Part shown: positions 9,526 to 10,585 of the stretch, piece by piece
How positions within the stretch are numbered: the stretch's first letter is position 1
Layout of the letters: each line of letters starts with the position of its first letter
Origin: a virus
Lineage: Duplodnaviria; Heunggongvirae; Uroviricota; Caudoviricetes
Direction: 5' to 3' (one strand)
DNA: 18,129 nt
IMG/VR virus record: IMGVR_UViG_3300012281_000006
The notes under the pieces: generated by a model
The model's input: only the letters and a program-made list of their open reading frames with translations
The model's database searches: none
Told to the model about the DNA's origin: nothing
Position numbers and translations under genes: made by a program

Positions 9526-10585
9526 CGGGGAGTTTCAGCTTTGGATTGCGAGAATGGACGATTACAAAACTTTCCCGGCCTTTCTTCTCAATTGAACAGT
9601 CGAGATAGCCGATTGTTTTAAGCTGTTCTATCGCTTTCTTAATGATACGGTTTTGCTCGCCAACAGCTGACTGTAAAGCCAGGCGCTCACGGATTCGCGC
9701 GAACGATAGCGGCAACGGGTTCTGCGGAAGGCTTTCGATGAAAGTGTAAATGGCTTGTGCAGCTTCTTTCTTCGGAAGGGCACGCAAGGCGTNNNNNNNN
9801 NNNNNNNNNNNNNNNNNNNNNNNNNNNNNNNNNNNNNNNNNNNNNNNNNNNNNNNNNNNNNNNNNNNNNNNNNNNNNNNNNNNNNNNNNNNNNNNNNNNN
9901 NNNNNNNNNNNNNNNNNNNNNNNNNNNNNNNNNNNNNNNNNNNNNNNNNNNNNNNNNNNNNNNNNNNNNNNNNNNNNNNNNNNNNNNNNNNNNNNNNNNN
10001 NNNNNNNNNNNNNNNNNNNNNNNNNNNNNNNNNNNNNNNNNNNNNNNNNNNNNNTTCCAGCTCGATCAGATCGAGGTCAGCATCGAAACGTCCGACCTTC
10101 AACAGACCAGTCTGGTAGCCACCTTTAGCATCTTTACCGCGCTTAAAAGCGATCCCCTTGTTACGCAAGCGGCCAAGTGATTCATGAATGGTTAAACGCA
10201 GTTTCGCATCCAGACGTTTTGAGGGGAAACCACAGGCTTTAGCGAATTCCTAAAACGATAACTGGATGGTGTTTGAGGACAAGCCGTATTTGCTGAACGC
10301 GTAGATAACACCGATCCACGTTTTGAAATCAGTATCCATATCGAGTCGAGGACCGGTGATTTTAATGTCATCGTAACCTTCTGCTTTAGCTATCTCCAGC
10401 TGGGAAAACGCTTTGGTGGCATCAATCTCTTTACTTTCTCCTTTGCTCTTTGATGGCTTCGGCACGAATACCCCCAAGCGCATCAACGCTACAGGCTGCA
10501 CAGTGTTGTTTGAATTAACTGTTAGTTCTTTTGCCTTACTTTCAATGTCTGCGTAAAGAATATCGGAGATAAAAGATTGATTCAT
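9521..10585 (-). CDS. repA: Replication initiator RepA, interrupted by an in-frame amber (TAG) codon and spanning a 262-nt N-run
   Basis: N-terminal 111 aa MNQSFISDILYADIESKAKELTVNSNNTVQPVALMRLG... then TAG at 10250-10252 (plus-strand cta), then the same frame continues EFAKACGFPSKRLDAKLRL...LRNKGIAFKRGK... through the gap to ...IGYLDCSIEKKGRESFVIVHSRNPKLKLPE; flanked by incC and incA iterons. Confidence 0.8.

Follow-up and report, generated by a model that had tools for sequence, protein, structure and literature searches.

Among described systems, the locus considered here most closely resembles the replicon of phage P1 (NC_005856.1, positions 61771-62631; K02380.1). In P1 the partition genes parB and parA are followed by the incA iterons, repA, the incC/oriR region, and upfA. 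The repA coding sequence is 861 nt long and specifies a protein of 286 amino acids (aa) (NC_005856.1), the approximate length that a sequence-only reading of the present locus had assumed for P1. The full P1 RepA matches the Pfam families Rep3_N (WH1) at residues 94-215 and Rep3_C (WH2) at residues 228-270, the latter just under the Pfam cut-off.

The window, that is, the whole 18,129-nt stretch of viral DNA that was analyzed (IMG/VR record IMGVR_UViG_3300012281_000006), shares the P1 order across its replicon. It carries, in turn, the end of repL, a hok/sok locus, tail and head genes, parB, parA, the incA iterons, repA, incC/oriR, upfA, and further genes leading to dmt and tRNA genes. Two runs of N interrupt it, one of them inside repA. 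The N-runs and the replicon features are as follows.

480-527: first run of N, 48 nt
6749-7750, minus strand: parB
7767-8963, minus strand: parA
9238-9520, downstream of repA: incA iteron array, RepA-binding repeats (seven copies at no more than three mismatches)
9521-10585, minus strand: repA, P1-type, encoding an initiator of the Rep3/RepB family (ATG at 10585, stop at 9521-9523)
9793-10054: second run of N, 262 nt, inside repA, in place of codon 178 through the first base of codon 197
10250-10252, minus strand: TAG (amber) in frame at codon 112 of repA
10642-10744, minus strand, upstream of repA: incC iterons of oriR and repA promoter region (four copies at no more than three mismatches)

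The DNA of the window is approximately 97-98% identical to that of phage P1 and of many P1-like plasmids from E. coli and Salmonella. Seventeen P1 proteins are intact in it at 89-100% aa identity, with a DNA identity of ~97%, which argues that the window is natural and has been under purifying selection, and which rules out artificial or random mutation. The whole window derives from a P1-like plasmid prophage, of which it is one segment. It combines known P1-like segments into a mosaic; in the annotated phage and plasmid collections searched, the best identity over its whole length was also ~97-98%.

When P1 RepA is aligned to the window with tblastn, residues 1-177 fall at positions 10585-10055 and residues 198-286 at 9790-9524, leaving residues 178-197 behind the Ns; the visible parts (177 + 89 = 266 aa) agree with the figure of about 266 aa given in the sequence-only reading. 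Residues 198-286 are 100% identical to P1 RepA, and residues 1-177 differ from it at one position, the amber codon. The two fragments match Rep3_N and Rep3_C at the same positions as does the full protein (Rep3_N scoring under the cut-off on the truncated piece). The gene is flanked by iterons, with 11 matches at no more than three mismatches against 0.03 expected by chance, and the DNA is ~97% identical to that of the P1 replicon. By its sequence, domains, and iteron context, the locus is accordingly classed, with residues 178-197 hidden, as a member of the P1 RepA/oriR iteron replicon. What it lacks is the uninterrupted frame of about 286 codons: TAG stands at codon 112, and the span of repA is 1,065 nt (355 codons, owing to the N-run) rather than the canonical 861 nt.

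The presence of a 262-nt N-run within repA was confirmed, as was its disproportionate length. Alignment of the flanks with the reference repA places 58 nt between the same two points in P1, close to the 60 or so that had been predicted to be missing, and the excess of 204 nt (68 codons) corresponds to the earlier estimate of about 200 bp. Because 262 and 58 both leave a remainder of 1 on division by three, repA continues in the same frame downstream of the run, with one codon lying across the edge of the Ns, as the sequence-only reading had supposed.

The 58-nt spacing is invariant among relatives. All of the fetched loci that have both flanks (55 of 55) carry exactly 58 nt between them, and conserved anchors at the canonical spacing matched 48 viral contigs, in every case over 172 nt and hence with a 58-nt fill, the two sets overlapping heavily. 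Two further collections contributed approximately 70 complete plasmids apiece; these align over ~1592-1596 nt against ~1796-1800 query bases, 204 fewer. Flank anchors set at the spacing of the window (±15 nt) produced no match in the viral, genome, and metagenome collections, against 48 matches in the positive control. At the protein level, no RepA homolog of at least 84% identity exceeds 286 aa among the 120 listed of 517 found. Of 12 listed homologs longer than 301 aa, the 11 that were aligned owe their length to N- or C-terminal extensions, with no internal insertion. Residues 178-197 belong to a conserved alignment block that has no gaps and six invariant positions and is located within Rep3_N/WH1 (94-215), and a 68-residue insertion there would be expected to disrupt the fold.

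The closest relative, the P1-like prophage plasmid L057 (IMGVR_UViG_2648501390_000035), carries the same repA allele as the window and is identical to it over positions 8560-9792 and 10055-10620 with the exception of a single base, that of the amber codon. In place of the Ns it has 58 ordinary bases, GGTGTTGCAACAGAACGCGATAATCAAGCTGGAACAGCTCCCACAGCTTCGAGTCGGC. When this fill is put into the window, an 861-nt repA results, encoding 286 aa and equal to P1 RepA save at codon 112.

The amber codon, which the sequence-only reading had overlooked, interrupts the repA ORF irrespective of the N-run. Codon 112 is CAG (Gln) in P1, in 50 relatives, and in L057; leaving the N-run aside, it supplies the sole base at which the window differs from L057 over 8560-10620, position 10252 being A in the window and G in L057. 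The TAG reflects either a base-call error or a nonsense mutation of very recent date, and repA as written is either a pseudogene or a carrier of sequencing error; the TAG is the only determined lesion of the gene. If it is a nonsense mutation, a glutamine-inserting supE host would suppress it. A 34-mer spanning the amber codon had no match in viral, genome, or metagenome contigs. An exact look-up of the 111-aa truncated RepA did give matches, most of them contigs that simply end at codon 112 (a selection effect). A real TAG at this codon was seen in two low-coverage metagenome contigs (L009 and L010) with other sequence backgrounds, the former with a repA of the canonical 861-nt span; because both were retrieved by searching exactly for the truncated product, they are no evidence of a lineage.

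The first N-run provides an internal control. Its 48 Ns stand for 6 nt, CAGTTA, in a plasmid of 99.4% identity and in all seven relatives compared; the hexanucleotide forms codons 7-8 of a small ORF (ATG at 462; 81 aa in the relatives), and the excess is 42 nt, or 14 codons. Either N lengths are generally not faithful in this record, or two insertions without precedent have occurred. At both N-runs the flanks of the window match the relatives right up to the edge of the Ns. Both runs also start at a codon boundary of the gene that they interrupt, and the excesses of 42 and 204 nt are each a multiple of three, a coincidence of about 1 in 81, calculated post hoc, that a random assembly gap does not predict. 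As a separate observation, 48 nt equals eight copies of CAGTTA, and a masked hexanucleotide repeat is possible at 480-527. Hard-masked tandem repeats were rejected as an explanation of the two runs; 8 x CAGTTA fits the 48 nt, but no unit fits 262 against 58 with the canonical sequence.

We consider it probable that positions 9793-10054 are an assembly artefact, most likely a scaffold gap of estimated length or an equivalent mask, over an ordinary 58-nt piece of repA. The size mismatch, the invariant 58-nt fill, the over-length second example at 480-527, and the lack of any insertion precedent are direct observations; the Ns themselves, we infer, came from scaffolding or masking of a length not faithful to the molecule. 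Two contigs would have been joined in a scaffold, with the gap length estimated and not counted from real bases. The 58 nt beneath the Ns would encode a part of the WH1 domain, RepA residues 178-197 (ADSKLWELFQLDYRVLLQHH), and the sequence predicted between 9792 and 10055 is GGTG(T/C)TGCAACAG(A/G)ACGCGATAATCAAGCTGGAACAGCTCCCACAGCTTCGAGTCGGC.

Several properties of the locus are those of estimated-length scaffold gaps. The flanks are collinear with those of relatives, and reference bases are missing at both sites (58 at repA, 6 at 480-527). Since the repA flanks are non-adjacent in the reference, with 58 nt missing and no duplication, the arrangement fits a gap and not a point insertion. The N length departs from the canonical one at more than one gap (262 vs 58 and 48 vs 6), a comparison judged from relatives, which holds if the source has the canonical fill. 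Scaffolders that estimate a gap write an irregular number of Ns, of the kind seen here (48 and 262). Common scaffolders are documented to misjudge gap sizes by as much or more, some errors in published benchmarks exceeding 1000 bp (PMC9326850). Counted against a scaffold gap are the two excesses in multiples of three, unlike what is expected for gaps, and the codon-boundary starts of both N-runs, together with the nonsense codon in the same gene, which makes two lesions within 1 kb. Some stretches in the collections are, moreover, deliberately masked, although such a mask normally preserves length.

The sequence-only reading had offered two alternatives: that the gap length was arbitrary, or that about 200 bp of hidden or masked extra sequence lay inside repA. 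The former is favored by the 58 nt of all relatives, the L057 fill, and the 48 vs 6 nt of the first N-run; nothing was found in support of the latter, with zero matches at the window's spacing in three collections and no internal insertion in the homologs examined. In full, the latter supposes that the length is real and that repA contains ~204 nt of additional DNA, either a small element, mobile or repetitive, or repA sequence duplicated in tandem, which the assembler failed to resolve or which was masked. Sixty-eight codons would then have been added in frame within WH1, in a repA already inactivated by the amber codon, as in a decaying replicon. Such an origin is unlikely. It would suit the exact multiple of three seen in the excess here and likewise at 480-527, and with TAG at codon 112 a further disruption of repA would be tolerated; small multi-copy elements are also generally known to break short-read assemblies. 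However, every relative has 58 nt at the site, the spacing of the window occurs nowhere in three collections, and the RepA homologs examined have no internal insertion. A simple insertion would also leave the loss of the 58 canonical nt unaccounted for, and a second, independent insertion of 42 nt in another gene would be required. The visible RepA is 100% that of P1 save for the amber codon and the DNA equals that of L057 for ~2 kb, leaving little time for two independent lesions. No target-site duplication is found at the repA flanks, which lie 58 nt apart in P1 and all relatives and are neither adjacent nor overlapping as at the insertion site of a mobile element; nor do the relatives show a similar insertion.

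The most literal form of this idea, in which the N length is faithful throughout, would make the locus a replicon inactivated twice, once by 68 codons inserted or duplicated in frame within the RepA WH1 domain and once by the amber codon, with a second in-frame insertion of like kind at 480-527; we hold this to be improbable. Were the length real, the window would be an example of a P1-type plasmid prophage losing its own replicon, and with a faithful length that replicon would have been lost twice over, as might happen once the prophage had integrated or fused with another replicon. It is likewise improbable that junk present in the assembled contig, such as adaptor or vector sequence or a stretch that was chimeric or wrongly joined, was replaced with Ns by the submitter or a pipeline, on purpose or in quality control. 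The N length would then be faithful to the junk but not to the plasmid, and repA would be ordinary in the real molecule. This too would be an artefact. A longer run does replace a short canonical piece at both sites, as would be expected at a mis-join, masked stretches do occur in the searched collections, and none of the other 74 loci fetched contains an N-run, Ns thus being uncommon in these data. The flanks, however, show no chimeric junction or residual adaptor and match relatives up to the edge of the Ns, and by sequence alone such a mask is not separable from a scaffold gap.

Other candidates were rejected. An insertion sequence is excluded by size, 262 nt being below that usual for E. 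coli elements (at least 768 nt), and by flanks that are non-adjacent in the reference. Known mini-inteins are larger than 68 aa; an intein or intron was discarded on this ground and for want of a precedent in RepA homologs. A reference-guided consensus with Ns at uncovered positions was ruled out, since the site is 262 nt long in no known relative. With an assembly gap as the preferred explanation, the N-run itself is no biological feature and its biological weight is small; the N-run lengths of this record are not to be taken as real distances, and annotation of an insertion in repA is unwarranted.

Several loci elsewhere in the window differ from P1. Where P1 has rlfA and rlfB, the window has a hok/sok type I toxin-antitoxin locus (762-1086), an arrangement common to many P1-like plasmids. 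Toward the opposite end, a segment at 17541-17868 without a P1 match contains a gene for tRNA-Ser, near two P1-like tRNA genes; at the Rfam gathering threshold tRNA-Asn and tRNA-Thr were matched and tRNA-Ser was not.

762-936: sok RNA (Rfam RF01794, 109.8 bits)
931-1086: Hok/Gef peptide
17058-17133: tRNA-Asn, P1-like
17136-17211: tRNA-Thr, P1-like
17687-17773: tRNA-Ser (anticodon tga), within 17541-17868

The dmt gene (14366-16384) encodes a Dmt of 672 aa, lacking roughly residues 265-350 of the P1 protein (754 aa). Exact matches to the gp21 of the window and to its Dmt, whether the GTG start is translated as V or as M, are absent from an index of 153 billion genes. In some relatives (L015, L016, L018, and L020) dmt specifies a product of 1013-1095 aa with matches to Pfam Hint_2 and LAGLIDADG_3, which suggests that the methyltransferase Dmt of these relatives contains an intein.
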